Both the position numbers and the translations under genes were made by a program. From a virus (Duplodnaviria > Caudoviricetes): DNA of 64,000 nt. Under the pieces are notes generated by a model that made no database searches, was not told where the DNA came from, and worked only from the letters and a program-made list of their open reading frames with translations. This document shows, one piece after another, positions 22,605 to 51,076 of the stretch (positions are counted from its first letter, which is position 1; every line of letters begins with the position of its first letter). The stretch is taken from the IMG/VR virus record IMGVR_UViG_3300038345_000144; one strand, written 5' to 3'.

Positions 22605-22611
22605 CGGTCTC

Positions 22612-29597: not shown

Positions 29598-30022
29598 GGA
29601 ACCTCCGAAAGTCGGAGAGATTTACCGTCTGCGATTACCGAGCCGTCCCTCATTGAATAACCTCCGAACTCGGAGACAATAACACTTAAACTTATAAGAC
29701 TGTGTACCCCTTGAGAAAAACCTCCGAACTCGGAGAAGTATCGTTGGAACTGCATATCCGTGTGACGATTTGTGATAAACCCCCGTAAATACGAGGAAAA
29801 CTTGCAGGTTTAATTGTTGCCTCCTGCCCCATAGAATAACCCCCGTAAACGAGGAACCAAAAGGTAGCACTGCCCGTCAAGCTATACGAGTGAGAAACCT
29901 CCAATTTGGAGAAAAAGTTGCCTCTTGTTTATACTTATGCTAAACCTCCGACACGGAGAATACTGGTTAATCACTGATAGAAAATTTCCAGCATTGAAAA
30001 ACCTCCAAACCTGGAGAAACAC
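29596..30022 (-). CRISPR. Orphan CRISPR-like array B: 8 degenerate type I-E-like repeats, 7 spacers
   Basis: Repeats at 29996-30022, 29939-29963, 29892-29917, 29834-29858, 29774-29801, 29715-29740, 29655-29679 and 29596-29621. Period is 57-60 nt with one of 47. Example: GTTTTCCTCGTATTTACGGGGGTTTATC, resembling Firmicutes I-E repeats of the GTTTT(T/C)CCCGCACACGCGGGGGTGATCC kind. Unique spacers of about 32, 21, 33, 32, 33, 35 and 33 nt. Confidence 0.82.
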
Positions 30023-30034
30023 TTTATTTACTAT

Positions 30035-30064
30035 ATGATACCAAGTTGAATGATTTTTTGTAAA
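30035..30064 (-). promoter_or_regulatory. Promoter driving array B
   Basis: TTTACA-N18-TATCAT with extended -10 TG, ending about 12 nt upstream of the first repeat. Confidence 0.65.
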
Positions 30065-30069
30065 TAGCC

Positions 30070-30110
30070 AAAAAGAAAAACTCCCTCTAATCGAAATTAG
30101 AAGGAGTCTT
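30070..30110 (-). terminator. Terminator downstream of the topoisomerase operon
   Basis: ACTCC-CTCTAAT...ATTAGA-AGGAGT hairpin with U-tract on -. Confidence 0.75.
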
Positions 30111-30147
30111 TCCTAATGAAAGGTATAAAAATGAAGAAACGCTCGCT

Positions 30148-32259
30148 TTATTTTCCGTGTACTTCAGTAATTTGTTCACCCTTTTTGAGTTTGAGAACTA
30201 CCTTACCACTGGCACTTCTACCCGCCTGAACATTCTGACCAACAGCGTCAATAGTGACAGTTCTCTGGTTAGTGGTAATCTCGATGTTCTCGTCCTCTTT
30301 GAGTAACTTAACAGCGATAACCTCGTCACCAGCAACCTTTAAGCCACATACCGTTGTACCGATAGCCTTACTAATCTTCAAGCAATTATCGACAGGCATC
30401 TTCTTACCAACACCAGTCTTGGTAACAAAGTAGATATAAGGCAAGTCAACATCTTCGGAATAGATAGCAATTACCTTTTCGTTCTTACCGATTTCAGGTC
30501 TCAAATCAGAGATATTGTTACCCGAAGCGGCAGGCATTACTACATCAATAGTATTTGACTTAATCTTATACATATTACCGAGGTTAGTAACCATAGTTAC
30601 ATACTGGTTGCCCTCAACTGTAATAAACTTACTGTCTTCGTCAGTAGACCTAAACTTTGTAGGGTCAACTCTCTTGAGTGTCTGTGCTTCTGTAAGAACG
30701 ACCTTGAATATCTTTTTAGGCTTTGCGACCTTTGGCTTTGTAACAGCAACTCTAATATCCTGCATTTCAATATCTTCGAGTTGTGTTTTTCTTTCCCAGC
30801 CGTACTTATCAACAAGAGCATTAAATTGCTTAACGAATAACTTTGTACGAGCCTTTTCGTCGTTAATCAACTTCTCGTCTTCAGCCTTCTGCTTCTCCAA
30901 AGAGTCCTTTTCGTCATTCAACTTCTGCTTTTCGAGGTTAGCAAGTTTACCGAGTTGTGTAGTTACGATAGCCTCTGCCTGTACTTCTGTGAAGTGGAGA
31001 GCCTTACCGTTCTTACCCTTAAAGGCTTTCTTAACGATTGCCTGCTTTGCATCTTCGGAAGACTTGGAGGATTTGATTGTCTTGATAATCTCGTCAATTA
31101 CATCTAAAGCGGAAAGCAAACCATAGAGGACTTCCAATCTGTGATTAACTTTATCAAGGTCATATTGAGCCTCTTTAACAATAATCTCCAAGTTCTTTCT
31201 TACAAAATATTCGATATACTTCGGAAGTGTGATAGTTTCTGGCTGACCACTCTCACCGATAGCAATATGAAGGTCGGTAATGTTGATTTGAAGAGGTGTT
31301 TTTCTATAAAGAAGTTCTCTTACATATTCAGCAGTACCCTCTTGACACATAATTTCAATCAAGAAGCCGTTTCTATCACAACGGTCTGCCATATCAACAA
31401 TCGGCACATTATCCGTAGTCTCTACGAGTTTCTTAACCTTCTCTCGATAATCTTTAGGGAAGTAGCCGTAAGGGAGTGAATAAATCTTGATAGTGTCACC
31501 TTCAATTTCGGTTTCACCTCTTAATCTGATTGTACCCTTACCAGTCTCATAAATACTGGCTAACTCTGACTTGTTGATGATGATACCACCCGTAGGGAAG
31601 TCAGGGAAAACCTTTGTGCAATCAACCTTACCAGTCTTGATAAAGTTCAAAATCTGGTCTCTTATCTCGAAAAGGTTAGAACTTGACCAAGTAGCCTTGA
31701 TACCATAACCCATTCCTAACTCATTTGTCATAAAGAGTAATGGAAGTTTAGCAACCCAATCCTGCAAGATAGGTTCAGGACACTCCTCGGAATAGTTCTT
31801 ACCCATATGCAAGATGTTTGTGTTATAGAACAACGCATCCTCAAGCACTTCTGCCATTCTGATTTCTGTATATCTCTGATTTGATACTTCAGGACCACCA
31901 ATCAAGGAGCCGTAACCACCGTGACCGTCAAGAAGCGGTACAGGATATACGAAATCTTGAGCCATACGAGCCATAACACCATATGCTCCTGCGTGAGGGT
32001 GGAACCTCATTACCTCACCCTCGACAGTTGCCGACTTGGTATAAGCCTTATTATGAAAGTGTCCGTTGTAGTACATAGCCCAAGCGACACGGGATTGAAC
32101 AGGCTTCTGACCATTAGATATATAGTTCATCTGACGGGATAAGTTAACCTCGTCACTATATTCGTGGAAGTCATCGTGAAGTTCCGTAACAATGTCTCTG
32201 TCAACAATAGGCTTTTCAATAATTTCTTTTTCTTCTGTAATTTTCTTTCTACGAGCCAT
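30148..32259 (-). CDS. gyrA: Type IIA topoisomerase subunit A (GyrA/ParC-like)
   Basis: GQKPVQSR, FHPH, catalytic RYTE, PDFPTGG, C-terminal pinwheel-like repeats; gyrase versus topo IV not resolved. Confidence 0.9.
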   Translation of the reverse strand: MARRKKITEEKEIIEKPIVDRDIVTELHDDFHEYSDEVNLSRQMNYISNGQKPVQSRVAWAMYYNGHFHNKAYTKSATVEGEVMRFHPHAGAYGVMARMAQDFVYPVPLLDGHGGYGSLIGGPEVSNQRYTEIRMAEVLEDALFYNTNILHMGKNYSEECPEPILQDWVAKLPLLFMTNELGMGYGIKATWSSSNLFEIRDQILNFIKTGKVDCTKVFPDFPTGGIIINKSELASIYETGKGTIRLRGETEIEGDTIKIYSLPYGYFPKDYREKVKKLVETTDNVPIVDMADRCDRNGFLIEIMCQEGTAEYVRELLYRKTPLQINITDLHIAIGESGQPETITLPKYIEYFVRKNLEIIVKEAQYDLDKVNHRLEVLYGLLSALDVIDEIIKTIKSSKSSEDAKQAIVKKAFKGKNGKALHFTEVQAEAIVTTQLGKLANLEKQKLNDEKDSLEKQKAEDEKLINDEKARTKLFVKQFNALVDKYGWERKTQLEDIEMQDIRVAVTKPKVAKPKKIFKVVLTEAQTLKRVDPTKFRSTDEDSKFITVEGNQYVTMVTNLGNMYKIKSNTIDVVMPAASGNNISDLRPEIGKNEKVIAIYSEDVDLPYIYFVTKTGVGKKMPVDNCLKISKAIGTTVCGLKVAGDEVIAVKLLKEDENIEITTNQRTVTIDAVGQNVQAGRSASGKVVLKLKKGEQITEVHGK

Positions 32260-32261
32260 AA

Positions 32262-34229
32262 TTACTCCTCCGTTGCTGAACCATCGTACTCAACCGAGCC
32301 GTGATAGAGGTAATCCTTACGAGCGTAAGCATTACTACCCTTAACTAACTCTAACCACTCTTCAAACTCTTGTTCGTCCTTAACTACCAAACGCTTCAAG
32401 TTACGAGTAGCAGGGTTAACCAACTGGTCATAAGTGTCGTCCTGTGACATTTCACCAAGACCCTTTGCTCTGGCAACTGTATATTTCTTACTCTTGTTCT
32501 TTTCTCTCCACTTGTTGAGTTCTGCATCGTTCTGGAAGAGAATATACTCACCATTAGGGAAAGTAACCTTATACAACGCACCATATACACGATAGATATA
32601 GCCGTTATATATAAGTTCAGGGCAAATTCTGTGGAATACCGTGATAAGAAGCATAGCAATATCAGAACCGTCGGCATCAGCGTCCGTTGTAATGATAATC
32701 TTGCTATATCTCAACTTCTTTTCGTCAAAGATAAGTCTAACGGCATTACCGTCTTCCATACTCAAACCGAGAGACTTAATAATAGCCATAACCTCACCAT
32801 TCTGCAAAATCTTTGAGGCAGAAACATCTTTACAGTTAAGTATCTTACCTCTAATAGGGAATGATGCTTGGAAAGAACTGTCCTTAACAGCGTTGATAGA
32901 CCCTACGGCAGAGTCACCCTCGCAAATCATAAGTTCGCACTTACTTCTATCACGCTTGTCCTTTGGATATGCGTCAGAAAGTTTTGTAGGAAGGTCAGTA
33001 AAGAGAGCCTTTGCACCCTTACCCTTCTTAACTTCACGCATCTTCTCACGGATTTTCTTGACTTCCTCTTCTTCTTTTCTCTGCTGAAGAGCCTTTTCTG
33101 TCATCATCTTGAGGCAGTCCTGATTATTACATAACCAAGTAGCAAAGTCACCACCGATAACGGCATTGATGATAGAAGCGTCAATATCGTCAACGATAGA
33201 CTTATTCTGTGCCTCGTATCTAACAGAAGCGGTTGTCATATTAAATACTACATATAATCCCTTTGAAACTTCGCTGAATGTGAAATTTTTATCCGACTTC
33301 TTGAGTAATCCCAAATCGGTTGCACACTTATTAACGGCTCTTACAAATGATGTCTTGAAAGCACCCAAGTGAGCACCACCAACAGTCGCACCGAGATTTA
33401 CGAAAGCCTCGATATGCTCATCATAGTTAGCAACCATAGTGATACAAATATTGAGAGAGTCGTCACCCATAGTTCTATTAGTAATGAACCTCTGTGGGAA
33501 TACCTCGTTATGTTCAACTTTCTTTGATACATACGCAGGCAATCCCTCTGGTTCGTGGAATACCTCTGTTGTACCATCGTGCGTATATTCAATTGTAAGG
33601 TTAGGACAGAACGCACAAGTCGGAGCAAACCAAGACTTGAGTGCATATACATTAGGAACATTCTCATTAAAGAATTGAGGGTCAGGAGACCAAGTAACTT
33701 CTGTACCTGAAGGTCTCTTTTTCTTACCAACTTCCCTCTTCTTGAGAAGTCCGTCCACAAAATCAAGTGACTCATACTCTCCGTCTCTATAAGAAGTTAC
33801 ATTTAACTTCAAGGAGAGCCAGTTAGCCAGTTTTGCACCGATACCGTTAAGACCGAGGGCAGAACCAGCATATACGCCGTTGTCTGTGGACTTACCTGAT
33901 GTGTTAATCGTATCAAACGACCTCTGCAAGATTGTCTTACCGTCTTTCATCGGCTCACCAGTCTTACGGTCAATACCTGGGTCGTTGATGATAAATCCTT
34001 GTCCATTATCCTTAACGGAATAAACATTATTTTTAGTATCAGAACTAACCGTAATGTGGTCGCCGTTACCGATAATGTGTTCGTCAATGGAGTTCGCAAC
34101 AATCTCTTTAATTAAGTTTGTGTTGTCTTTTGCTGAACCAAGATAAGTAGACGGTGCTCGTCTTGTGTACTCTCTTGGGTCTTCTTGATAAATACTTGAG
34201 TTGTCATAAGAATGTTTTACTTCACCCAT
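32262..34229 (-). CDS. gyrB: Type IIA topoisomerase subunit B (GyrB/ParE-like)
   Basis: EIVANSIDE, KDNGQG, GLNGIG, EGDSA, PIRGKILN, DADADG, KGLGEM. Confidence 0.93.
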   Translation of the reverse strand: MGEVKHSYDNSSIYQEDPREYTRRAPSTYLGSAKDNTNLIKEIVANSIDEHIIGNGDHITVSSDTKNNVYSVKDNGQGFIINDPGIDRKTGEPMKDGKTILQRSFDTINTSGKSTDNGVYAGSALGLNGIGAKLANWLSLKLNVTSYRDGEYESLDFVDGLLKKREVGKKKRPSGTEVTWSPDPQFFNENVPNVYALKSWFAPTCAFCPNLTIEYTHDGTTEVFHEPEGLPAYVSKKVEHNEVFPQRFITNRTMGDDSLNICITMVANYDEHIEAFVNLGATVGGAHLGAFKTSFVRAVNKCATDLGLLKKSDKNFTFSEVSKGLYVVFNMTTASVRYEAQNKSIVDDIDASIINAVIGGDFATWLCNNQDCLKMMTEKALQQRKEEEEVKKIREKMREVKKGKGAKALFTDLPTKLSDAYPKDKRDRSKCELMICEGDSAVGSINAVKDSSFQASFPIRGKILNCKDVSASKILQNGEVMAIIKSLGLSMEDGNAVRLIFDEKKLRYSKIIITTDADADGSDIAMLLITVFHRICPELIYNGYIYRVYGALYKVTFPNGEYILFQNDAELNKWREKNKSKKYTVARAKGLGEMSQDDTYDQLVNPATRNLKRLVVKDEQEFEEWLELVKGSNAYARKDYLYHGSVEYDGSATEE

Positions 34230-34373
34230 TTAACTTTATATCCTTTCACTAATTTTTACGTTTTTAATTAAAAGTCATTTTGTTACAAATGTCAATAGTT
34301 AATTTATTTTTTTGAAAATGGGACAGAAAAAGAACTCACAGGTCAATACAAAGACTGACCCGTGAGCCTATAA

Positions 34374-34970
34374 TTATACTTCGTTCCAGTCATCCAATTC
34401 CTTGATGTTCTTACGGCTTGCTATATAGTCAGCGATGTGAACCAACTTCTCGAAATCCGTTCTCGGCTTTGAGAGAGCCTTCTGCGGATTACCAGCCTTC
34501 TCGCCATAAGTATCAACGCACCACTTACCCATATGTGAGTAAATAGCGTCTGTAATCATATTAACCTTGAGGTCATCAATACCTGCTTCGGTCAAATGCT
34601 CTCTGACGAAATCACTTGCAAGTCTTGGATGCTCGAATACTGTGTGTGTTGAATATGTGCCGTCCTCGGCTACATAACCACTCTTCAAACAATCGTGGAA
34701 GAGGCAAGCGACCCTAACGATGTCTCTGTTAGCAGGGTTATCCCTAACAAACATTTCTGATGTTACGAGGTCATCACCGAACTTTGTAACCATAAGGGAG
34801 TGTCTTACAAGACCACCCTCACCCAAATCACATTCGGGGTGGTACTTACCTGATGATGATGCTGGTACGAGCCAGAAGTAGAACGGAATGTCCTCTACCA
34901 TCTTCAAGCAAGCCTCACGCAGAGCCTCGTCGTTAATACGCTTTACCGCTTCAATAAATTCGTTCTTCAT
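34374..34970 (-). CDS. HD-domain phosphohydrolase
   Basis: PASSSGKYH, GGLVRH, LFHD, HP, SHMG, HIADY. Confidence 0.88.
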   Translation of the reverse strand: MKNEFIEAVKRINDEALREACLKMVEDIPFYFWLVPASSSGKYHPECDLGEGGLVRHSLMVTKFGDDLVTSEMFVRDNPANRDIVRVACLFHDCLKSGYVAEDGTYSTHTVFEHPRLASDFVREHLTEAGIDDLKVNMITDAIYSHMGKWCVDTYGEKAGNPQKALSKPRTDFEKLVHIADYIASRKNIKELDDWNEV

Positions 34971-35010
34971 TTATATAATTTCCTTTCAAATAAAATACAG
35001 TGTTATGTTA

Positions 35011-35624
35011 TTATACCACAAACTTGTTCCATAGGTTAGTCACTTGTGCTACTATCCACTTACCAATACTTAAAAGACTTGGTAATGAATAACCAAAGCA
35101 ACCACAAATGAACACGATTAAGATATAACCTGCCGCTATCTTGAGGCAATCCTTGATTTTCACTTTACCTACAAAGTGTGCAATACCCAAGATGCAGGCT
35201 AATATAATCATATTAGTTGGCATTGATACTACACAATCAATTAAGTTTTGAAGTAATGTGCTTAACATCTTAAATCTCCTTCGTTAGTTTTTTACTTGGC
35301 TTTCTTTATCAATTTAGCCTTTTGTAATGCTTCTTCAACTGCTTGCAATTCTTTCATACACTTCAGTACGCTTTCGGTGTACTTGATTGCCTTGTCAAAT
35401 TCCTCGTCCGTCAGAGACATATTGCTCATCGGAAGAACAATCTTTGCTCGTTTCTTTGAGTCAATTTCAATCTTATATACTCCGTCAGCACCCCTACTAC
35501 CAATCTCGATGGTGTTCTTGGCTGTTGGCGTAGCATACCAAGTGTTTGATGGCACTTTCTTATTAGCAAAAGCCGTAATGTTCTGTGCCAATTCCTTTGT
35601 CTCGTCCGTAATACCAGTAGTCAT
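35011..35624 (-). CDS. Small membrane protein (35011-35268) and hypothetical protein (35292-35624)
   Basis: ORFs with RBSs; the first is hydrophobic. Confidence 0.6.
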
Positions 35625-35686
35625 TGTAATTTACCTCGCTTTTATTATTTATTAGTATAGTACGGAACGGCAAACCGTGTAGTGTT

Positions 35687-36139
35687 TTATCCTAACTGTC
35701 CTAATGATACCACAGGGGCAGTCCAATTATTGGGACAGATGAGCATAAAAGTCAACACAGTTATACCAAATTCAAGCGGTAGCATCGCTGGTATCTTCTC
35801 AACCCTGCTTTTACTCTTTTGAGTGGTTCTGTATAAGAGTGCATAAGCCAGAAAACACGCAATCAATGTTATCGCTAAAATCTTACTATTTACTATTATA
35901 ATTAAATAGCCCATCACGAAAAGGTACAGTATATCAATCGGGAAATCCTTAATTTTAGCCAAAACAATAACTACTAATCCCAACAATAGCGTATAGTCCA
36001 CTAAACAGGACACACTAATGTAATTGATTAGTAGTAACCAAATCGGAATTTCCTGATATTTTAGGTCATATACCGCTACCATTATTGATGATAGCAGTAA
36101 TATGCCTAATAAAACAAATTTGATAACAGTCATCATCAT
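35687..36139 (-). CDS. Prepilin peptidase (A24)-like polytopic membrane protein, possibly degenerate
   Basis: AVYDLKYQEIP first Asp motif and C-terminal IPAMLP; canonical GxGD not seen. Confidence 0.5.
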   Translation of the reverse strand: MMMTVIKFVLLGILLLSSIMVAVYDLKYQEIPIWLLLINYISVSCLVDYTLLLGLVVIVLAKIKDFPIDILYLFVMGYLIIIVNSKILAITLIACFLAYALLYRTTQKSKSRVEKIPAMLPLEFGITVLTFMLICPNNWTAPVVSLGQLG

Positions 36140-37182
36140 TTCAATAATGCGTCAGAATGTTCTCCAATATAGATTTTCTGCGGGATTTGTGCGTAGAATA
36201 GCGTATTATCCTGCATTACAGAGAGGAACCTCTTGGCATCATCAGTATTGAAGTAGCCTTGTTCTGTAAAAGTATAAACTCTATTCTTACTGTCAGCGAT
36301 GAACTTCTTGTAGAATTCATCAATCTTGTCAGCAAGGATTTGTTCATTTTCTTTAGAGAAATCAAGTTCCATATACTTCTTCTTACCGATAGGAGTAATG
36401 AGATAACCCTTTGAAATCTCTGTATTAAGTTCCTGCTCCATACCCCACTTATACAAAATCATAGAACCCAAATAACCGTCAAATGTTACATATTCAGGCT
36501 TTGGATTACCAGTCTTGTAGTCAAGGATAACTGGACCGACCTCATCACGATAGTCAATACGGTCTGCTACATAGGAAACGGCACAAGGGAGTGTATAGCC
36601 AATAGACTTGACATATAACTTCTCTCTGCCTCTATGCTCCGTTGAACATTTGAGTTTTGCGTCCTCAAGAATGTCCTTCGGGTGCAGATAGTCCTTAATA
36701 TCGTAATATCCCTTAACAAAACTCTCAAGTTTCTCTCTGTCCTGACCAGGTGCTATAACCTCGTCTAAAATCTCAAAGAGTTTGCTTCTATGTCTTTCAT
36801 CAGCAGGGAGATTATAGTAAATTTCCATAATCTTGTGGAACGCAGTACCTAAAGCGGTAGCGTCATTGACCTGCTCGGTAAAGAAATTCTGCATCAACAA
36901 AAGGGCGGGGTTAGTCATATAACCAGAGAGAAAACTCGGTGAGAAGTAATCTCCGCTAAATCTATTCAATAGAGACTGAATGGAAGAACCATAGCCCTGA
37001 TAGATAGCAACATTTCTGGTCTGATGCTTATTGTTGTACGCCTTTACGAGTTTCTGAATGAGTAATTCACAATCAGTAAAAAGTGCTGATGCGTCCAATG
37101 TCTTGTTGTTAATTTTAGCAACATAAGTTAAGAGGTAGTCTTTACCTTCTTCTGTAATAATCTGGTCTCTAATATCGCCCAT
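36136..37182 (-). CDS. PD-(D/E)XK nuclease, RecB/AddB-family
   Basis: FSPS, LGTAFHKIME, ADRID, ILDYKTG. Confidence 0.85.
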   Translation of the reverse strand: MGDIRDQIITEEGKDYLLTYVAKINNKTLDASALFTDCELLIQKLVKAYNNKHQTRNVAIYQGYGSSIQSLLNRFSGDYFSPSFLSGYMTNPALLLMQNFFTEQVNDATALGTAFHKIMEIYYNLPADERHRSKLFEILDEVIAPGQDREKLESFVKGYYDIKDYLHPKDILEDAKLKCSTEHRGREKLYVKSIGYTLPCAVSYVADRIDYRDEVGPVILDYKTGNPKPEYVTFDGYLGSMILYKWGMEQELNTEISKGYLITPIGKKKYMELDFSKENEQILADKIDEFYKKFIADSKNRVYTFTEQGYFNTDDAKRFLSVMQDNTLFYAQIPQKIYIGEHSDALLK

Positions 37183-37517
37183 TAAGAAAACACCCTTTCT
37201 ATAATCTGTTCGTCAGGTTCAAAAATAAAATCTGACTCTATTTCGGCATTATTACTATCATACTGGGTTTCAAACCATTTGTAAAGGGCAACAATGTCGT
37301 GGTTTGTAAGCAATCTGTTAGGTGTGAGTAAGACTTTACCGTACTTATTCTGTCTGTTTATCAGCCAAGTTATACGGTTAATCTTGAACTCCTTAAACTC
37401 CTTATTGAGTCTCTTTCTTGTCACCTCATCGTGAATTTCGTGGTTATTGAGTTTGTCCTCGGCAGTAGCCTTTTCACGCTCATTACCTACATACTTAAAT
37501 TCTGCTACATAAATCAT
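37182..37517 (-). CDS. Hypothetical protein coupled to the RNAP gene
   Basis: 111 aa ORF overlapping both neighbours. Confidence 0.65.
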   Translation of the reverse strand: MIYVAEFKYVGNEREKATAEDKLNNHEIHDEVTRKRLNKEFKEFKINRITWLINRQNKYGKVLLTPNRLLTNHDIVALYKWFETQYDSNNAEIESDFIFEPDEQIIERVFS

Positions 37518-38515
37518 ACTTTCTTCGCTCCCTTGTATCTGTCGGTGGCAATCTCGGTCTTAACAGAGTTAGCCTCAAATGTTCCTGCTACAAGCAACTT
37601 CTCGAAAGACTGCTGTGTAGGTTTATAGATAAACGCTCCAAACTTATCACCCTGCTGGAGGAAAGATGTCTGTAAAGCGGCGAACTTACCGTTTCTCCAT
37701 CTTGAGAGTAAGGCAACTTCGTAAAATCTTGACTCAACTCCTACATTACCAATCTGGTCGATAATTTCCTGTATCTTTTCCTTTGCTTCAGCGATATTCT
37801 TAATCTTCGGTATCTTCTGCTCAAGCAATACATTGATACGCTCGGAGGTTCCCTTGTTCATAGCATCCAAAGCACCCTGCGTAGCGTACTCTGTAATCAT
37901 ATAAGTAGCCCATTCGCCAATGTTGATAGGTACGAAGGTAGAGTCCCATTCTCTTCTGTAAAGACCAGCACACTTCGCACAGAAATGTCTGATACCGTGA
38001 GTACAAGTAAGGAAGTTACGAATGTGGATAGTACCACGCTTCGGAAGTTCGGAGTAGTCCTCAACATAACGGTCCAACTCCATAACCCAGTGGTTCCTTA
38101 TCTTGTAGTTGAAAGTATCTTCATCAACTGGCATCTTGAACTCAACGCCTTCGCTCTTGCAGTCGGCAATATCAATGCTCATACCGTCACAAGAACTTGC
38201 CAGTTTTTTCCAGAAGTAACCAGAAGCCGTAATATCCGTAACATTAGCGGAAATTACCTGCTTCATAAACTTATTTGACTCTTCCTCGGAGTAATTGTCA
38301 GTTCTTCTGTTAACAGAGTTGGCAATATCTTTTGTGTTACCAGTAAACTCGGTGATGTTCTCAATTTTCTTCATAGAAGTCTTGTTCTTCTCACCAAAAG
38401 CCTTTGCAAAGTCGCCTACATTCGGGATGTAGCACTTGGTAAACATAGCCATTCTGTCTGCATTGTACTGTTCTAAATACTCGTCACGACTTACTCTTTT
38501 AAGTTTTTTAGCCAT
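37514..38515 (-). CDS. rpoC: RNA polymerase beta' C-terminal part (bridge helix, second Zn site, trigger loop)
   Basis: ASGYFWKKL (cf. SGYLTRRL), DC, RNFLTC...FCAKCAG (cf. RSxxxC...CxxCYG), ITEYATQGAL (cf. IGEPGTQLTM). Confidence 0.8.
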   Translation of the reverse strand: MAKKLKRVSRDEYLEQYNADRMAMFTKCYIPNVGDFAKAFGEKNKTSMKKIENITEFTGNTKDIANSVNRRTDNYSEEESNKFMKQVISANVTDITASGYFWKKLASSCDGMSIDIADCKSEGVEFKMPVDEDTFNYKIRNHWVMELDRYVEDYSELPKRGTIHIRNFLTCTHGIRHFCAKCAGLYRREWDSTFVPINIGEWATYMITEYATQGALDAMNKGTSERINVLLEQKIPKIKNIAEAKEKIQEIIDQIGNVGVESRFYEVALLSRWRNGKFAALQTSFLQQGDKFGAFIYKPTQQSFEKLLVAGTFEANSVKTEIATDRYKGAKKV

Positions 38516-38984: not shown

Positions 38985-38987
38985 AGA

Positions 38988-42546: not shown

Positions 42547-42574
42547 TTATGCACTCCTTATAGTGTTTTATTTA

Positions 42575-42949: not shown

Positions 42950-42985
42950 TTTCCTAAATTTCCTTCCTAAAATTAAAATTATATT

Positions 42986-43213
42986 TTATTTATTCTTGGC
43001 TATTATAATAATGAACACCAAGAAATAAATAAGCAACAGTAATAATACTAATGCAAAAGTAATCCAAATTGGCGAGAGTACCCAAACCCAAGACCAGTCG
43101 ATTACCTTGCATAATTTTAAGACAATAAAGGCAATAGTCAATAGGGTAGAAAAACTACCACCTACTGTAACGGAGACTTTTGCTCCTCCACCGTTATTGT
43201 CATCATTTCCCAT
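42986..43213 (-). CDS. Small membrane protein
   Basis: FIVLKL..VIDWSWVWVLSPIW motif; two TM segments. Confidence 0.7.
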   Translation of the reverse strand: MGNDDNNGGGAKVSVTVGGSFSTLLTIAFIVLKLCKVIDWSWVWVLSPIWITFALVLLLLLIYFLVFIIIIAKNK

Positions 43214-43297
43214 ATTTGTACTCCTTAAAAGTTGTGTGGTTACAGGCAGTGTTGTTTGTTTTTAAGTTTATTTTTGTTTATTTTTGATTAGTGGAAT

Positions 43298-43960
43298 TTA
43301 GAATGTATCTTCATCTTCCGCAGTAACCTCAACAGGACCGTCTTCCTCAAGAGAGATTACTGTGCCTTCGCTTGGAGCATCTTCTAATTCTTCCTCTGTG
43401 TTCTTGCCTGCTTCTCTTTCAGCAATAGACTCCTTAACGAGTTTATTGGTGAGAGATACAAGATATGCCTGAATGTGTCTATCGACCATAATCATAGCAC
43501 TTCTGAACTTTGCAGGCTCTACGGGTACACCAATCATAACTTCAGGCTTACCATCAGGTATAATTGCACCAGTGTCAGTTGTCTTACCCTTACCGAGTGA
43601 GAGATTAACGAACAACTTATCACCTGCCATTGTTAACTTGATGGTACGGCTTTCAATGTGGTTGTCATATCTCTTGGACTTTGTGCTACCACCACGGCTG
43701 ATAATGTAACCCTTCTCGCCAGCCTTCATAACCTTCTCAAAAATTCTTCCCGACCTACAATCTTCTGCAAGTGTGACAGCCTCTTCGAACTCAAGATAGC
43801 AACTAACAGAACGCTGTGCCATCGGGAGCGACTTGTCATACTTTGCCGCCTGAAGTCTTACCTTCTCGATACCGAAACTATCGAGATACACATTCAGAAC
43901 GACTGTTTTTGTAGATGATTTGGAGATTTTGTACTTGTCAAACTGATTGTTTCTATTCAT
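43298..43960 (-). CDS. Hypothetical beta-rich protein with acidic tail (possible ssDNA-binding protein)
   Basis: Acidic C-terminus ending EDEDTF; first gene after the promoter at 44027-44055. Confidence 0.5.
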   Translation of the reverse strand: MNRNNQFDKYKISKSSTKTVVLNVYLDSFGIEKVRLQAAKYDKSLPMAQRSVSCYLEFEEAVTLAEDCRSGRIFEKVMKAGEKGYIISRGGSTKSKRYDNHIESRTIKLTMAGDKLFVNLSLGKGKTTDTGAIIPDGKPEVMIGVPVEPAKFRSAMIMVDRHIQAYLVSLTNKLVKESIAEREAGKNTEEELEDAPSEGTVISLEEDGPVEVTAEDEDTF

Positions 43961-44026
43961 TTAATTAAATTCCTTTCGCATAATAGAACACTGCCTGTAC
44001 CCCACTATGCTTTTATATACTTAATC

Positions 44027-44055
44027 ATTATAACAATATTATTTTTCTTTGTAAA
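44027..44055 (-). promoter_or_regulatory. Sigma-A type promoter upstream of the RNAP gene block
   Basis: TTTACA-N17-TATAAT with extended -10 TG. Confidence 0.75.
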
Positions 44056-44059
44056 TAGC

Positions 44060-44779
44060 CTACTCTTCAATTAACGGATTTTTTATTTTAAGGGTGATGC
44101 TATCCGAAGATTTTTCTGCTTCATTTATTTTAGCCTTACCCTTAACTTCGACCCCATAATCCTTGAGACGCTGTTTGAGGTGTTTTACTCCAGTAGTGCG
44201 TACCCACTTATTAAATGCCTCTCGGTTAATAATACAATACATATTGGTATCATCAATCTTCCACTCTCCGTGCCACTTTGAATACTTCGGAGGCTTCAGT
44301 TCACCTGCTCTATGCCAAAGAAAGTCAGGATAAGACTTTGAGTTGAAAAGACAATGACCTCGCCACTGGGACAAAATTGTACCATTTTCAAATGTCGTAT
44401 CAAACGAGTCCAGAGGCATACAATAACTATCGCAAATATTAAAATTTTGCCCGCTAATAACTGCTGAAAGGGTTGAAATCAGTGTTGGTTCGTGGTCATT
44501 TGGGCTTCTATGAAAATTCATTTCAAATCTGGGAACGCAAATCTCAAAATCAATCGCAAGTTCCTTTGCAACACAATTATCCTTGTTCTCCATCGCTTTT
44601 GACAGCACAAGGTCTAAAAACTGGTCGGTAACAATATATTGGATATACTCATCTAAATACACATCAACCTTATCAATGAAATTATCCAATATCTTAAGAA
44701 ACTCTGTCTGATAATCGTCCTTGTCCTTCACGGCTTTCAGGGTTTTTGACCTGACTGAATTAAGTAATTCTAAATCCAT
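44060..44779 (-). CDS. Hypothetical protein
   Basis: 239 aa ORF with RBS. Confidence 0.65.
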   Translation of the reverse strand: MDLELLNSVRSKTLKAVKDKDDYQTEFLKILDNFIDKVDVYLDEYIQYIVTDQFLDLVLSKAMENKDNCVAKELAIDFEICVPRFEMNFHRSPNDHEPTLISTLSAVISGQNFNICDSYCMPLDSFDTTFENGTILSQWRGHCLFNSKSYPDFLWHRAGELKPPKYSKWHGEWKIDDTNMYCIINREAFNKWVRTTGVKHLKQRLKDYGVEVKGKAKINEAEKSSDSITLKIKNPLIEE

Positions 44780-44807
44780 TTCTCAAAATTCCTTTCAACA
44801 TTCTACA

Positions 44808-45290
44808 TCAGTCATCAATATTTCTCTTTAACTTATATAATTCTCTATTAGACGACCTGAACATCATTAACAACAACTCGTATATAGGCTTATCCCTATC
44901 GTGAACTTTTGCGTTTTTAATTACTCTCATATTTCCCCAACTATCAGGTGCTATACAGCCAACCCAATGTGGTAATAAATGTCTAACTTGCGTAAACACT
45001 TCTTCCGTAGTAACCAAATATGACTTATCCGCAATATGCCAATTACAACCGTGTCCTGAATTGAAATCTTCAACTGACGATTTAATCTCATAAGCAATAA
45101 ACAAACCTTGCTCTATTCCTGACACGCTATTGTTTTTTGGCTTGAACTGCATAAAATCTATTCTACACTCTTTAGAAGTAGCATAGTCAAAAGTTACTTC
45201 CGTAGCATAATAAATGCGGGGGTCGTTATGCGGGTTAATGTAGTTTTTAAGTTGTCGGGATAATTCAGCCGTTATCTCTTTCCTATTCAT
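44808..45290 (-). CDS. MmcB-like PD-(D/E)XK nuclease-fold protein
   Basis: EV...RIDF...YEIKSSVEDF...YLV. Confidence 0.7.
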   Translation of the reverse strand: MNRKEITAELSRQLKNYINPHNDPRIYYATEVTFDYATSKECRIDFMQFKPKNNSVSGIEQGLFIAYEIKSSVEDFNSGHGCNWHIADKSYLVTTEEVFTQVRHLLPHWVGCIAPDSWGNMRVIKNAKVHDRDKPIYELLLMMFRSSNRELYKLKRNIDD

Positions 45291-45303
45291 TTATAAATTC
45301 CTT

Positions 45304-45720
45304 TCAACTTTTTCCGTATCTGTAAGCCACATAACTAATAACTTTTACTTTATCAAGAATGTATATGTGGTAGGTCTTCTTATCTGCGTCACCCTGCTCA
45401 TATTCAGGAACTAACGACTTGGGATTGAAATGCCTTACCATCCAGTCATAGACATACTGATTAGCACCGTTCCAATTGTAACGGATTTCATCGGGCATAC
45501 CTCGCTCATTGTATAAAGTAACAAGGGCTTCACTTAAAACCTTTAAGCCATAGCCCTTATGCTGATACATCGAGTTCGTGAACCACTCGGAGATACTCCA
45601 AATACTGCCATCACCATTTAGAGAGATTTTGCACTCACTAATCTGTGTATGGTTGTCCTCTTCGTAGATAGTTACTCGTAACCCATTTAATAAGTTTTCC
45701 TTGACAATTTTAGATGCCAT
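45304..45720 (-). CDS. GNAT-fold acetyltransferase-like protein
   Basis: YQHKGYG (Q/RxxGxG) motif A. Confidence 0.55.
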   Translation of the reverse strand: MASKIVKENLLNGLRVTIYEEDNHTQISECKISLNGDGSIWSISEWFTNSMYQHKGYGLKVLSEALVTLYNERGMPDEIRYNWNGANQYVYDWMVRHFNPKSLVPEYEQGDADKKTYHIYILDKVKVISYVAYRYGKS

Positions 45721-46528
45721 ACATTCTCTTGATTGCGTTTACATCAAACGAAATATTTTTCTCTTCTTTAATCTGTGTCTTTGCTACTTCAACCAGTGTG
45801 TCGAGGTACATTGTATCACAATCGGAGTGGCTTTCAACCCACTCTTCCAAAATAACTCTCAACTCGCTGATATGAATAGGCTTGGTCGTACTTGCATACC
45901 ACTCATCATCACGGCAAATATCAATAGGCGTGTCATTGACAATACAAACATAGCCGTCAATACTGTCGATAGGCAGACCTCTCTTTGACATAATATTCTC
46001 CCAAATAGGAGTAGATGCGTGAACTGTAAGCAATTCCTTGCCCTTATCTGGGTCCATAAGGACATTTCCTACCAAGATAACCTCTTGATTTGGCTTTAAT
46101 TTGAGGTTTTTAGCGTCAATAACCAGTAAGTTACGACCATAAACCAAAAGCGTATCGGTATCTGGAGTATATCCTAACTGTTCAAATTTCTCTGGCTCGG
46201 AGGAAAGGCTGGCAAATGCTACTATTCCCTGCAACTTATCATCATTCTTGAGAAGTGTCTGCAAGTATTCACATAACTTAATCTCACCTTCAAGACCTGC
46301 CTTTGTCAAAGCAATTTGAGTTTCAAGTTCAGGGTCTTTCATACTCCAATCGAGTATTGAGACATTCTTCTGTGCGTCCCTCTTATGCTCCAATTCTACC
46401 AATGTCTGACGCAAACCCTCACCAGGAGTTCCGATAACACGGTCTCCAGAACGAATATAGTTTCGTACATTTATAGCAAGGTCGTGGTCTTCAGGCAGAA
46501 TATTATCCTTGTTAAGTTTAGTAAGCAT
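45710..46528 (-). CDS. NERD-like/PD-(D/E)XK nuclease-fold protein
   Basis: GLEGE...DTDTLLV...LVIDAKN. Confidence 0.55.
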   Translation of the reverse strand: MLTKLNKDNILPEDHDLAINVRNYIRSGDRVIGTPGEGLRQTLVELEHKRDAQKNVSILDWSMKDPELETQIALTKAGLEGEIKLCEYLQTLLKNDDKLQGIVAFASLSSEPEKFEQLGYTPDTDTLLVYGRNLLVIDAKNLKLKPNQEVILVGNVLMDPDKGKELLTVHASTPIWENIMSKRGLPIDSIDGYVCIVNDTPIDICRDDEWYASTTKPIHISELRVILEEWVESHSDCDTMYLDTLVEVAKTQIKEEKNISFDVNAIKRMYGI

Positions 46529-46531
46529 TAC

Positions 46532-47524
46532 TTACGCCTTTCTGATGTTGGTATTCTTGTCAGGGTCTACATACTCCCAGTGATAACCACCAGCCGTAAT
46601 TGCAAGTCCCTTGAGTACAGCGTGGACATTCTTATTACCGCAAGCCTTCTGTGCCTTTGATACGGAAGAGAATACCTCTCCAGTTTCTACGCAACGAACG
46701 GACTTGGACTCGTCCTTAACATACTCCCAACGGAAACCCTTTGCTGTTGGAACTCTGCCAGTACATACCGCATAGATTGTTTCTCTTGCAAGTCCGTACT
46801 TCTTTCCTGCTTCTTCAACGGAGTCAAATACTTCGCCAGTGTCAACATTTCTGCACTTTCTGTTTCTTGTGCCTGCTACCCACTTCTGCAAATCCTTCTT
46901 TAGACATCCGCAAGACTTGGTGCGTTCGATGTTGTTAGTAGCAACTTCTACGATATTACCGCACTCACACTTACACTTGAATACCGCCTTACCGTTCTTG
47001 TTCTTAACGACATCAATAACTGTAAGTCTTCCGTGAGGATTGGAGTCAAATGCCCACTTGAAAGTTTCCATAGCATATTCGTGCCAATTATTCTGTCTGT
47101 AATAGAGAGTTGGCTGTGAAATGCTCTTATACTTGTTAAATAGGTCTTCTGTGAGTTTTCTGTCCTTCTCAAACTGTGCTCTTGTAGCCTTGAGATTTCT
47201 ACGATAGAACATATCGTAGTAGTTATAAACTATGTCATCAAGGTTGAACATAGCCTTGAAATGCTCTGGTGTAAGGAAACTGTATGACTTAAACCAGTAC
47301 AAAGCCTCGAACCTATCTTCATCAAGTTCAGGCTTATTTTGCATCATAGGTGCTATTATCTGACGAACACGCTCTCTTGAGATACGCTCGGTTTCCTGCT
47401 CCCCAATTTCCTGAAGTGTCATACCCTTCAGTCTCATATTCATAAATCGGGTTACTTTTTCCACCTTATCCTTCTGATTATAGAGTTTAGCAGGATAAGT
47501 CTTTACCCATTCTTTGATTTTCAT
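46532..47524 (-). CDS. Modular DNA-binding protein: sigma-70 region 4-like HTH, homing-endonuclease-type Cys module and two NUMOD1-like repeats
   Basis: MTLQEIG...ISRERVRQI; GRLTVI...CKCECGN...SCGC; two copies of TGEVF.SV..A......G..WEYV. Confidence 0.7.
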   Translation of the reverse strand: MKIKEWVKTYPAKLYNQKDKVEKVTRFMNMRLKGMTLQEIGEQETERISRERVRQIIAPMMQNKPELDEDRFEALYWFKSYSFLTPEHFKAMFNLDDIVYNYYDMFYRRNLKATRAQFEKDRKLTEDLFNKYKSISQPTLYYRQNNWHEYAMETFKWAFDSNPHGRLTVIDVVKNKNGKAVFKCKCECGNIVEVATNNIERTKSCGCLKKDLQKWVAGTRNRKCRNVDTGEVFDSVEEAGKKYGLARETIYAVCTGRVPTAKGFRWEYVKDESKSVRCVETGEVFSSVSKAQKACGNKNVHAVLKGLAITAGGYHWEYVDPDKNTNIRKA

Positions 47525-47532
47525 AACATTTA

Positions 47533-48242
47533 TTAGTCCTTTCTGTTGTTATCTTCATCGTCTAAAAATTTGGCTAACTTGTCGGGGTCAACCTCAAGAA
47601 GTCTTTTTGCTTGTATCTTGTTGAGTTCAATACCCTTAACAATGCCAGTAGCAATACAACTATCTTTAATTGTATTGGTAGGTCTCCAGTCATCACTGGT
47701 CTTAAAAATTGCTATATATGTTTTCATAGCATAGCCTCACTTCTGCTCCCATTAACAACCCCTATATTGTCTGCCTACTCTGTATGCTTTCTTTCTCAAT
47801 TCCTCAATAGCATTATCTAACGCACGACAATATGCCTTGTTTTCCTTGTAATTATCCCTTAATTCAGACAAATTATGTGTGTCCTGCATAATGTCATTCT
47901 GCATTTTCGTAATCTGTTCGTCTAATTCTTTACTTGTCATTTTTTTTGCTCCTTTATGTAATTTATTTTTCAGTATTAAACCCTCATATCTGCTCCGCAA
48001 GTAGGGCATACTCCCAACGGCTCTGTAATCATCGTGTGAATTATTGGTAATTTGTATTCTCCGCACTTATCACATTCAAAACAAACAACATCTTGCCCGA
48101 AATTATTTTGTTTGTGTCTTGTTATCCACTTACCGTGAGGTCTTGTGTATTCCTTCTTTGCGTCCTCGTAACCTTTCTTATATCCATTAGCATAGAACTC
48201 TTGACCGTCTCGCAGTTCATTATAATTAGTCATTTTTCGCAC
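47533..48242 (-). CDS. Three small proteins including zinc-ribbon protein 47976-48242
   Basis: GYKKGYEDA...RPHGKW...CDKCG...CPTCGA. Confidence 0.6.
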
Positions 48243-48394
48243 CGCCTTTTTGTTCTATCGGTTCGTGATTATAGATGCCACAATACTGACTTACTTCTGT
48301 ATATGCGTCAGGACATTCCTTTAATTCAATGTGTCCTGCATACGGACATTGAGTACAACCTATTTCTTTCTTATTCATTTTAGTTATCCTCCTT

Positions 48395-49063
48395 TTACCA
48401 AGTTACTGCAAGGTCATATCCCTCTGGATATGTATAAATAAATGTACCTGTATCAAGTACAATACCCTCACCAAGACTTGTTTCAACGATAGAGCCGTAA
48501 GGGTGCAATCTCCAGTTAGCGGCGACTATTACATACTTACCGAACATCTTTGCTCCGTCCTCACGCTCCCAATACTTGCCTTCAATACCCTTCTTTGTGG
48601 CATTTGAGCAAACAAGACCCATAGGGAGATTGTAATAAGTCTCTCTATGACCATTAAACATATTAACCCCCTTCTGCTTTGTAAGAGGGTCATCAATAGC
48701 CTGATAGCCGAGGATTGTCTCTGTAATATCAACATACTCGTCATACAGGGCTGTGTAACTTGTTTCGAGATTGTTATAATCTGTGGAAAGAGCATTATAG
48801 TTGGACTCAAGATTTGTATAGTTAGTTTCCAACTCATTGTGGCTCTGCTGTAATGTATTGTAGTTGTTTTCAAGTGTCGTACAGTTGTTTGTTACCGTCT
48901 GAAGGTTAGTTGTCAACTGCTGGTTTTCTACTGCCAGTTCATCGGCTCTTGCATTAACCTGACTAAATCTGATATGGTTTGAAATAATATTGGCTCCGAA
49001 AGCCATAACCAAAATCACCGCAAACAAAAGTATCTTGTTGTTTATCTTTCTATCAAAAATCAT
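48395..49063 (-). CDS. Membrane-anchored coiled-coil protein with C-terminal 3D-like (cell-wall) domain
   Basis: N-terminal TM, heptad repeats, ETYY...VAAN...PYGSIVET..GEGIVLDTG...DLAV. Confidence 0.65.
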   Translation of the reverse strand: MIFDRKINNKILLFAVILVMAFGANIISNHIRFSQVNARADELAVENQQLTTNLQTVTNNCTTLENNYNTLQQSHNELETNYTNLESNYNALSTDYNNLETSYTALYDEYVDITETILGYQAIDDPLTKQKGVNMFNGHRETYYNLPMGLVCSNATKKGIEGKYWEREDGAKMFGKYVIVAANWRLHPYGSIVETSLGEGIVLDTGTFIYTYPEGYDLAVTW

Positions 49064-49095
49064 TAGTTTACCTCTCTTTTATGTAATGTAAACAT

Positions 49096-49125
49096 ATTAT
49101 ACCAAACGAATTTACAATTTGTAAA
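49096..49125 (-). promoter_or_regulatory. Sigma-A type promoter
   Basis: TTTACA-N18-TATAAT with extended -10 TG. Confidence 0.75.
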
Positions 49126-49138
49126 GGTTTACACTAAA

Positions 49139-49564
49139 TTAGTGATTTTCGAGATAATTCATCACCTTGAAGAGTGACTTCTGTTCAATCTGACGCACTC
49201 TTTCAAAGGACATATCATAGATTTCTGCAAGGTCTCTGAAAGTATAGCACTTATCGGCATTTATACCTCTTCTCTTATACAGAATATCCTTTTCCTGCTC
49301 CGTGCATACAATATCAATAGCCTTAATAATGTCCTCGGCGGTGATTTCTCGTCTTGCGTGAAGCCTCTTATAAAGGCAAATGCTCTGGAAAATAATACCT
49401 GCAATACCAAGACCTACGGCAATAAGCGTATAAAGTCTGATTGTAGGGAATATGATTGATGCTCCTACGAAAAGGAGTGTAGCAATACTGCCTGCTACCA
49501 GTGAAATAATGTCCTTTCTGACTAATTCCTTATTAGGCTTTCTGTTAATTGTAATGTTTCTCAT
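49139..49564 (-). CDS. Two-TM protein fused to a sigma-70 region 4 domain
   Basis: Two hydrophobic helices, then EQEKDILYKRRGI...YTFRDLAEIYDMSFERVRQIEQKSLFK. Confidence 0.75.
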   Translation of the reverse strand: MRNITINRKPNKELVRKDIISLVAGSIATLLFVGASIIFPTIRLYTLIAVGLGIAGIIFQSICLYKRLHARREITAEDIIKAIDIVCTEQEKDILYKRRGINADKCYTFRDLAEIYDMSFERVRQIEQKSLFKVMNYLENH

Positions 49565-49595
49565 TGTAGTAATTTCCTCTCTTTAAGATGGTTTC

Positions 49596-49625
49596 ATTAT
49601 ACCAAAGAGGTTATCTTTTTGTAAA
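49596..49625 (-). promoter_or_regulatory. Sigma-A type promoter
   Basis: TTTACA-N18-TATAAT with extended -10 TG. Confidence 0.75.
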
Positions 49626-49691
49626 GTGCCGTATAACAATAATAAAAGGGTGGTATTACCCACCCTTGTTATTTTTAATATGTCAGGTTGA

Positions 49692-50642
49692 TTAGACCTT
49701 GAGGACCATATCGTATGCACGGTCTACGAGAGGATGTCCGTGGATAACCTTCATATAACGGTTGATGTTGCCGTTAATCGTGTTCTTGCTGTCTGCGTGG
49801 TCAACCCAGTCGGTGACGGCTGACAGGAAACGATAAGCGTTGTTATCGAAGTTTGCGAGGTCGTCCTTCTCAAGATAGACGGACATCAACTGTGTTCTTC
49901 TAATCTTGATGTTCTCGATAACCTTCTCGGAGGCTTCCTTCTCGCCAACCTTTACTACGGGAAGAGGGAACAGTCTCTCGATGAATTCCTTTACCTGCAA
50001 AGGAGACAACTTAATGCCGTTGAGAACCTCTGCTTCTCTCTGGAGGGCTTCCATATACTTTGAGCCTGCAAGGAGAACTTCCTGTGCCTCTGCAATCTTG
50101 CCGTTAGGGTCGCCAGAGTGCTTGCAACGCCATACTCTTGATACAGCAGAGAGAGGCATATTGAAGAAGTTAGAGCAAGCAACTCTACGAGGAACTACGA
50201 GAGCCGTAACGCTACCAGTACCGTCGTGGGAGTTCTTGAATACGATGTAGCACTCCAACTTATCACCGAATACGGAATACTCTTCTGCTACTCTACCTTC
50301 GAGCCAAGTGGAACGACCACCCTTGAAGGAACCGCCCTTTACGAACTCAACGGACTTGTCGTTGTAAAGGTGCTTTGTGAACTCGAAAGCCTCTGTGTTC
50401 TGAACCAACTTGTACTTGTCAGTTACGATACCGAGTGCCTTGCCGTCCTCTTCACGAACAACCGTCTTGGTGTTAGGGATGAGTACCTTCTCACCGTTGA
50501 GGTCTACATAGGTGTCGTGTGTGTCTACGGTCCAGTTCAGACCTGTCTGTGCCAAAATGTCTTCGTATGATGTAGGATTAACGATGTCCTCACCAAAACC
50601 TGTCTCCAACTTTTCCTTTGTCAAAAATGTTAAATCTGCCAT
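49692..50642 (-). CDS. DUF932 family phage/plasmid protein (start reassigned to MADLT)
   Basis: GLNWTV, LGIVTDKYKLVQN.EAF, NSHDGTGS, RVACSN, KH; GGAGG RBS before the ATG at 50642. Confidence 0.85.
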   Translation of the reverse strand: MADLTFLTKEKLETGFGEDIVNPTSYEDILAQTGLNWTVDTHDTYVDLNGEKVLIPNTKTVVREEDGKALGIVTDKYKLVQNTEAFEFTKHLYNDKSVEFVKGGSFKGGRSTWLEGRVAEEYSVFGDKLECYIVFKNSHDGTGSVTALVVPRRVACSNFFNMPLSAVSRVWRCKHSGDPNGKIAEAQEVLLAGSKYMEALQREAEVLNGIKLSPLQVKEFIERLFPLPVVKVGEKEASEKVIENIKIRRTQLMSVYLEKDDLANFDNNAYRFLSAVTDWVDHADSKNTINGNINRYMKVIHGHPLVDRAYDMVLKV

Positions 50643-50694
50643 CTTTAATTCCTCCTGAATAATTTTCGTAAGGTGTTTTATCTTTAACGACCTC

Positions 50695-50724
50695 ATATTA
50701 CCATAGAAACTTTCAGGCTGTCAA
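50695..50724 (-). promoter_or_regulatory. Sigma-A type promoter
   Basis: TTGACA-N18-TAATAT with extended -10 TG. Confidence 0.65.
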
Positions 50725-50808
50725 GTGTATTTTCGGCAAAATATTCAAAAAAATGCCAAAATGGTCAGATTTGTCCTATTAAACGGACTAAAATGGGTAA
50801 AAAGGCAT

Positions 50809-50847
50809 AAAAAACTCCCCGTAAAATCAATTACGAGGAATTTTTTT
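50809..50847. terminator. Terminator closing array C (resembles a repeat-derived hairpin)
   Basis: AAAAAACTCCCCGTAAAATCAATTACGAGGAATTTTTTT: hairpin flanked by A- and T-tracts. Confidence 0.7.
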
Positions 50848-50864
50848 AATAATGTGGATTGCTA

Positions 50865-51076
50865 TTACAGCCCCCATAAATGAGGAAAGTTGAACGAGTT
50901 GTCAATGAACCCTTGTCAGCTTTGAACAACCTCCGATGCGGAGAACAGCCGTTTTACGCCAAGATTTGCTGAACAACCCCCGAAACGGGGAAACTTGTGC
51001 ATATATTACACAAGTTCTTTGTGGACTAAACCGCAGAGTTTGAGTCCTTTAGAACAACCCCCGAAACGGGGAAAAT
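50865..51076 (-). CRISPR. Orphan CRISPR-like mini-array C: 4 degenerate type I-E-like repeats, spacers of about 57, 22 and 33 nt
   Basis: Minus-strand repeats TTTCCCCGTTTCGGGGGTTGTTC (two copies, in 51052-51076 and 50971-50994), CTGTTCTCCGCATCGGAGGTTGTTC (50924-50948) and ACTTTCCTCATTTATGGGGGCTGTAA (50865-50890; core identical to a repeat in array A). Confidence 0.7.

Follow-up and report, generated by a model that had tools for sequence, protein, structure and literature searches.

What makes some spacers of a phage-borne CRISPR array much shorter or longer than their neighbours, and do such lengths follow the geometry of the complex into which the guides would be loaded? The question is raised by three small arrays of hairpin repeats, here called A, B and C, in a stretch of 64,000 nucleotides (nt) of Caudoviricetes DNA (IMG/VR record IMGVR_UViG_3300038345_000144), which we refer to as the window. 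An original prediction, made from this stretch, held that the off-length spacers of arrays B and C differ from the normal length by multiples of 6 nt, the length covered by one Cas7 subunit of the interference complex Cascade, and that the short ones may direct non-cutting repression or act as decoys. Comparing the window with sister strains of the same phage, we find that the off-length intervals are real and that the rule of six is not supported. On balance we lean towards separate accidental origins of these intervals, rather than a size series quantised in Cas7 steps.

Off-length intervals do not follow steps of six

All repeat units of the three arrays lie on the minus strand, where each unit reads as 2-3 T, a G+C-rich stem of 5-6 base pairs (bp), a 3-7 nt loop, a tail of 8 nt resembling GTTWWTCW and then a unique stretch. 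Array B (29595-30019, minus strand) has eight such hairpin repeats (5-6 bp stem, 3-6 nt loop, 8-nt GTTWWTCW tail) and seven spacers, array C (50864-51074, minus strand) has four repeats, C1-C4, and array A (22611-22771, minus strand) has three. As the length of each interval we took the gap that separates two neighbouring hairpins, counted between the final base of the first stem and the initial base of the second; values were pooled over strains. We preferred this to the repeat period because the period includes the loop and its variable 3-7 nt. By the same count, the type I-E arrays of Escherichia coli K-12 have a gap of 45 nt, made up of the 8-nt handle, a 32-nt spacer and 5 nt ahead of the stem.

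The irregular periods that had been noticed before are indeed there: 47 nt from start to start between B2 and B3 (stems 29958-29946 and 29911-29899) and again between C2 and C3 (stems 50990-50978 and 50943-50931), and 81 nt between C1 (stem 51071-51059) and C2, against 57-60 nt for the remaining periods. Expressed as gaps, array B reads 44, 34, 44, 44, 45, 46 and 44 nt, array C reads 68, 34 and 45 nt, and array A reads 45 and 60 nt, the last of which, between A2 and A3, is a fourth off-length interval (+16 nt) that had been missed. Pooling gives 33 observations of a normal gap of 44 (n=17), 45 (n=13) or 46 nt (n=3), comparable to the 45 nt counted for E. coli, and off-length gaps of 34 (n=6), 33 (n=1), 60 (n=1) and 68 nt (n=1). 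The short gaps are 10-12 nt below normal and the long gap of array C is 22-24 nt above it; whichever normal reference length is chosen, no more than two of the five off-length values come out as an exact multiple of 6. Nor are the short spacers a clean 12 nt short (gaps of 34 or 33 nt against 44-46 nt), the earlier count having drawn them 2-3 nt tighter than the normal ones.

The view that lengths are selected in 6-nt Cas7 steps (-12 and +24), giving Cascades of defined size with separate roles, can draw on the spread of normal gaps: if 44-46 nt is taken as a tolerance, 34 is the upper limit of a -12 class (32-34) and 68 the lower limit of a +24 class (68-70), and the Cascade of Streptococcus thermophilus is known to accept spacers of up to 57 nt (PMC6859484). 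However, a tolerance of plus or minus 1 nt admits half of all possible lengths, and agreement of three out of three then has a chance probability of 0.125; the 60-nt gap belongs to no class, though it is a recent duplication in one strain; and the 68-nt interval is, as described below, a structured flanking remnant found in a single strain. Moreover, the E. coli Cascade tolerates a departure from the steps, as a crRNA (CRISPR RNA) shortened by 3 nt is fully active, whereas one shortened by 12 nt loses Cas7 subunits and interferes only weakly (PMC5159557); strict steps of 6 nt are therefore unneeded and a short guide would be expected to be a weak cutter. We regard selection in steps of six as very unlikely.

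A type I-E system without adaptation genes

The hairpins are strongly conserved as structures. When 13 units from several strains are aligned without gaps, all 78 of the 78 stem cells (100%) hold standard pairs, with compensatory double changes in two of the six stem pairs (U-A to C-G and G-C to A-U) and one further pair that alternates between C-G and U-G; such covariation was reached by none of 500 shuffles, and slid controls pair at 40-67%. The U-G pairs are possible in minus-strand RNA only, which fixes the orientation of the arrays. A candidate sigma-70-like promoter, matched by consensus only (TTTACA, 18 nt, TATCAT, with a TG; 30035-30064, minus strand), stands directly upstream of array B and after the terminator of a topoisomerase gene. 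Array C begins about 12 nt past the stop codon of an AAA-CYTH gene and is closed by a strong intrinsic terminator (50809-50846, minus strand). The three arrays occupy the three largest intergenic gaps of the window.

The cas genes lie outside the window and were read in sister strains that are 97.5-99.4% identical to it across the overlap. In one of these (L086:4428-11427) cas8e, cas11e, cas7e, cas5e, cas6e and cas3e, all six matched by PADLOC and Pfam, follow each other in the order cas8e-cas11-cas7-cas5-cas6e-cas3, a complete interference set placed 13-20 kilobases (kb) beyond the end of the window and sharing the strand of the arrays; L006 and L087 have these genes too. Among the genes called in L006, L086 and L087 (about 30 kb around the operon) none belongs to a cas1 or cas2 family, and the six large window proteins that were scanned are replication and transcription genes, none of them cas. 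The best reading of the arrays is that they are putative crRNA arrays belonging to a type I-E system which the phage carries and which is without adaptation genes in the DNA reached. The type I-E and Cas7 framework proposed earlier thus stands, by its six genes and by a normal gap close to that of E. coli; the exact Cas7 steps do not.

Two features of the operon deserve mention in their own right. The 60-nt gap between cas6e and cas3 (L086:8965-9024) is filled by two repeat-like hairpins, the second of which has a tail like the 5' handle of E. coli and ends one base ahead of the cas3 start codon. Directly upstream of cas8e, a radical SAM gene encodes 281 amino acids in one strain and 635 in another (L086:3461-4306 versus L087:2398-4305), and the 635-residue version has intein-splicing and faint LAGLIDADG matches, which points to a strain-specific intein insertion.

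Window genes are almost all on the minus strand and include both type II topoisomerase subunits, a SNF2-type helicase, an RNA polymerase beta-like protein, DnaB, primase, RecA and thymidylate synthase homologues. An identical copy of a small window protein is carried on a contig of 406.6 kb, the longest such contig, and contigs bearing relatives of the helicase reach 504 kb; judging from these matches, the window is therefore part of a very large (huge) phage with a genome of roughly 407 kb. CRISPR without adaptation genes is a kind already described in huge phages, where almost all systems are without Cas1 and Cas2 and arrays are compact (PMC7162821). Rfam and transfer RNA scans of the window gave no matches, megablast of 6 kb around array B against a phage collection returned no relative, and IMG/VR yielded none either, a two-repeat pattern giving a single chance match there, in coding DNA. 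Phages with a helicase no more than 68% identical (66 metagenome and 7 genome loci) have no array in the region upstream of that gene; only the sister strains are informative.

The long gaps are confined to the window strain

The "57-nt spacer" of array C (50991-51050, minus strand; gap 68) folds into two stable hairpins and is preceded in the window by repeat C1 (51051-51074, minus strand), which is found only in the window strain and matches C2 throughout the hairpin and in all but the eighth base of the tail. In L084 and L085, C1 is absent and the interval has no repeat on its 5' side; about 105 nt stand there instead and complete an open reading frame (ORF) of 48 codons (L084:7055-7201), of which the window's "57-nt spacer" is the last codons, the stop and the following bases. 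The interval itself is identical in all three strains. It folds with a minimum free energy of -21.3 kcal/mol (z -5.1, with none of 200 shuffles as stable), whereas normal spacers have z values of -1.6 to +0.7, and normal and both short spacers are unstructured. The 48-residue product has no Pfam or PHROG family, and the ORF is a putative, unproven gene. Because the sister strains lack C1 and carry the ORF tail in its place, and because the interval is strongly structured, it appears to be flanking sequence bracketed by repeats in one strain and not an acquired long guide, as it had first been taken to be. The simplest mechanism would be that a copy of C2 replaced about 105 nt upstream, in the window strain only, and so bracketed the ORF tail and its hairpin.

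The 60-nt gap of array A has a different look. Within it lies a tandem duplication of 16 nt (22669-22684, minus strand; period 16, 2.1 copies, 100% match) made of the 3' half of the A2 hairpin and its tail, which lengthens the A2-A3 gap from 44 to 60 nt in the window strain only and is absent from six sister loci (L082, L088, L089, L091, L092 and L093). Slippage of 16 nt would account for it. On the leader side, three novelties belong to the window strain alone: array A has the 16-nt duplication, array B an additional unit and array C repeat C1.

Array B turns over by whole units

Array B could be followed in the window (29595-30019), L082:7600-8001, L088:1240-1540, L091:1640-1830 and L093:1300-1540. 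The strains are about 98% identical overall, yet array B differs among them by whole repeat-spacer units, with 4, 5, 6, 6 and 8 repeats per strain. Spacers s3 and s5 are common to all strains with few substitutions, and others occur in just one or two strains. Each spacer that is shared has 1-3 substitutions, a higher number than in the adjoining promoter and terminator sequence. The junctions are located in the conserved core between hairpin and tail, as expected for recombination between repeats.

These patterns are compatible with arrays that, in the absence of Cas1-Cas2 as a ruler, would change by recombination between repeats, by local duplication and by small insertions and deletions, so that spacer length would drift within 44-46 nt and sometimes jump.

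Loop size may also matter. In the window strain all the repeats with a 3-nt loop (B2, B3, C1, C2 and C3) flank off-length intervals, an association that fails in strain L093. A smaller hairpin loop was reported to impair Cas6 processing in a type I-E Cracr array (bioRxiv 10.1101/2024.10.29.618823), and by analogy processing of the 3-nt-loop units may be poorer.

The short spacers are inherited at constant length

Both short spacers have a gap of 34 nt. B-s2 (29912-29937, minus strand) comprises 26 nt from the 8-nt tail of B2 to the stem of B3, or 21-23 nt if the T-rich flank of the repeat is not counted, and C-s2 (50944-50969, minus strand) is its counterpart in array C; each is predicted to give a crRNA of 47 nt. 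B-s2 has gaps of 34, 34, 34 and 33 nt in the window, L088, L091 and L093, that is, in four of five strain types, and is the first spacer in three of the four that hold it; L082 and L083 lack it, and its neighbours too. C-s2 has a gap of 34 nt in all three strains where it could be read (the window, L084 and L085), with three substitutions in L084. Random recent deletion, which had been named as the observation that would speak against a role, is not what the strains display: since the same length is inherited across sister strains (4/5 for B-s2, 3/3 for C-s2), the short spacers are, on this comparison, old and length-stable. In the account that we favour, they would be older than both long intervals and would have been passed on at constant length while the sister strains diverged.

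In E. coli, Cas6e processes crRNAs irrespective of spacer length (PMC5159557). If the phage enzyme behaves alike, it would cut at the hairpin base whatever the spacer, and the short units would yield crRNAs of 47 nt that load a Cascade with about two fewer Cas7 and one fewer Cas11 subunits, with weak binding and poor interference. A bolder version, that the 47-nt units are conserved, discrete natural "mini-Cascade" guides (about 11 nt shorter, shedding two Cas7 and one Cas11) which bind without Cas3 cutting and exert a CreR-like control of the phage's own or rival genes from inside ordinary arrays, we consider doubtful.

Searches for targets of the short spacers

The short units could be crRNA-like RNAs of the CreR/CreA type, whose pseudo-spacers of 21-23 nt guide the phage Cascade to partially matching sites and repress without Cas3, possible targets being the phage's own cas operon or other phage genes. 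Their size class fits, as Cracr pseudo-spacers measure 24 and 21 nt in type I-E and 17-27 nt in type I-F, the latter assembling complexes with fewer Cas7 subunits (bioRxiv 10.1101/2024.10.29.618823), and both short spacers hold their gap at 33-34 nt across strains. The original prediction had suggested that targets be sought next to a protospacer-adjacent motif (PAM); in about 88 kb of the phage genome, this gave partial matches only (two for B-s2, one for C-s2), none of them convincing, the phage's own cas8e promoter included.

One match is at that promoter. In L086, B-s2 aligns discontinuously with the cas8e promoter, across its -10 box and start region, with 10 of 12 PAM-proximal positions matching and mismatches at seed positions 4 and 8. 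The match has a p of 0.006 if the T-run of the next repeat is counted, which speaks for regulation, but of 0.10-0.13 if it is not; with the T-run removed and two mismatches in the seed, cas8e is unsupported as a target.

The second B-s2 match is in the window itself (22103-22129, plus strand), over the first codons of a minus-strand gene (21911-22138), where a block of 15 nt is exact and 8 of 10 positions follow after a gap of 3 nt, or one codon. Its significance is borderline (0/300 family-wise shuffles by a seed statistic, 9/60 by plain local score), the codon at the gap is kept in 24 of the 24 known alleles in the protein database, and the B-s2 spacers do not track the allele of this gene in their own strain, with no covariation between strains. 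Given the borderline significance and the absence of covariation, we rejected the gene as a target of B-s2; the likeness is at best a possible old homology.

For C-s2 there is an exact match of 11 nt that runs from the first spacer position, has AAA as its 5' flank and lies on the minus strand at 22278-22268, within gene 22139-22480. It favours the regulatory reading; yet about one match of this length is expected by chance among the spacers tested, the site is in coding sequence and not in a promoter, and it does not covary, since strain L084/L088 alters both spacer and site with loss of pairing, and L091 keeps the spacer and appears to be without the gene. This candidate was likewise rejected.

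Some observations on this neighbourhood are recorded for their own sake. Several sister alleles differ from the C-s2-like site (22258-22278, minus strand) at guide positions 6 and 12, the bases that Cascade flips out and leaves unpaired, and coincidence is possible. Gene 22139-22480 adjoins the gene that resembles B-s2, and the stretch 21683-22138 holds two tandem paralogues of 75 amino acids with common N- and C-terminal motifs and no family match, the first with at least 24 alleles.

By comparison, a known type I-E CreR has 15 consecutive matches adjoining an AAG PAM (bioRxiv 10.1101/2023.03.10.532045), and none of the three partial matches measures up to such known regulators. L082 and L083, moreover, do entirely without B-s2. 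We therefore hold regulation by the short units to be possible, at well below even chances.

The short units could instead be aimed at the host, loading into a host type I-E Cascade to repress host cas genes or to soak up Cas proteins as decoys, and phage arrays of short crRNA-like RNAs with such a role are documented (bioRxiv 10.1101/2024.10.29.618823). But the phage encodes a complete Cascade and a Cas6e itself, the repeats of the short units have features in common with those of their normal-spacer neighbours, and no host, host repeat or host cas promoter was identified. The short spacers B-s2 and C-s2 have no exact match in IMG/VR, and the array regions that hold them gave no significant match in the phage collection (arrays B and C) or the plasmid collection (array B). 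A host-directed role seems to us quite improbable. Four conserved spacers of normal length, searched against IMG/VR with every sixth base left free, gave no match.

Other variable loci in the window

Two other stretches of the window vary or repeat. At 25134-27924, seven copies of a segment of about 69 nt (62-100% identical) lie within three consecutive minus-strand genes of 292-350 amino acids, which look like tandem paralogues or internally repeated proteins of no clear family. A gene of 756 amino acids (17863-20133) occurs in the window and in L093; L088 and L091 lack it, and there the neighbouring gene of 106-109 amino acids is followed directly by the poly(A) polymerase-like gene.

Discussion

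The off-length intervals of these arrays are most simply seen as three kinds of accident: flanking DNA enclosed by a copied repeat, a slippage duplication and old truncations. Several points weigh against this reading. Two independent short spacers have the identical gap of 34 nt, and intermediates such as -5 or -6 are absent, which purely accidental shortening does not predict; their length is constant across strains while nearby sequence gathers substitutions; and at 21-23 nt they have the size of experimentally characterised type I-E regulatory crRNA-like RNAs (24 and 21 nt; bioRxiv 10.1101/2024.10.29.618823). Furthermore, the direction of the change at C1 and the small ORF is inferred from parsimony and ORF intactness, without an outgroup, and the search for targets in the phage's own genome covered about 88 kb of roughly 407 kb. 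Our preference for separate accidental origins is a modest one.

The system resembles the type I-E systems of E. coli and S. thermophilus in its same six interference genes, its hairpin with an 8-nt 5' handle and its gap of 44-46 nt against 45 nt, and in those systems short and long spacers are known from engineered crRNAs to alter the number of Cas7 subunits (PMC5159557, PMC6859484). Unlike them, it has no cas1 or cas2 that we could find, its arrays are dispersed at least 13 kb from the cas operon, almost every repeat is distinct and the stems carry compensatory changes; and unlike the engineered crRNAs, the off-length spacers here are natural and not in exact 6-nt steps. With the systems of huge phages (Al-Shayeb et al. 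2020, PMC7162821) it shares a very large genome, interference without Cas1 and Cas2, and arrays of 3-8 repeats; it differs in that no spacer target in another phage or host is shown here, and that paper does not discuss off-length spacers.

The likeness to CreR, CreA and Cracr RNAs (bioRxiv 10.1101/2023.03.10.532045, 10.1101/2024.10.29.618823) is of another sort. There too, shortened pseudo-spacers (about 21-24 nt in type I-E) stand between degenerate repeats, the units can be stacked in arrays and form complexes with fewer Cas7 subunits, and a smaller loop reported to impair Cas6 processing recalls the 3-nt loops seen here. In contrast, the PAM-adjacent match to a cas or toxin promoter, with at least 9 consecutive PAM-proximal positions paired, was sought here and not convincingly found, the short units stand among spacers of normal length, and the phage has its own Cascade. 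The short units are not placed in the CreR/Cracr family, because the defining promoter match was not convincingly found.

As the evidence stands, the value of these results is mostly corrective. Where the loop is variable, the repeat period is an unreliable measure and lengths are better taken from hairpin to hairpin, and the comparison of sister strains can separate the origins of odd spacer lengths. If the short units were regulators after all, the phage would be applying crRNA-like control to its own Cascade, and would offer a natural example of the complexes of reduced stoichiometry that have so far been mainly engineered. On the reading that we prefer, the arrays would illustrate how a CRISPR locus evolves without Cas1-Cas2, with odd lengths arising from duplication, from repeats that capture flanking DNA and from old truncations.

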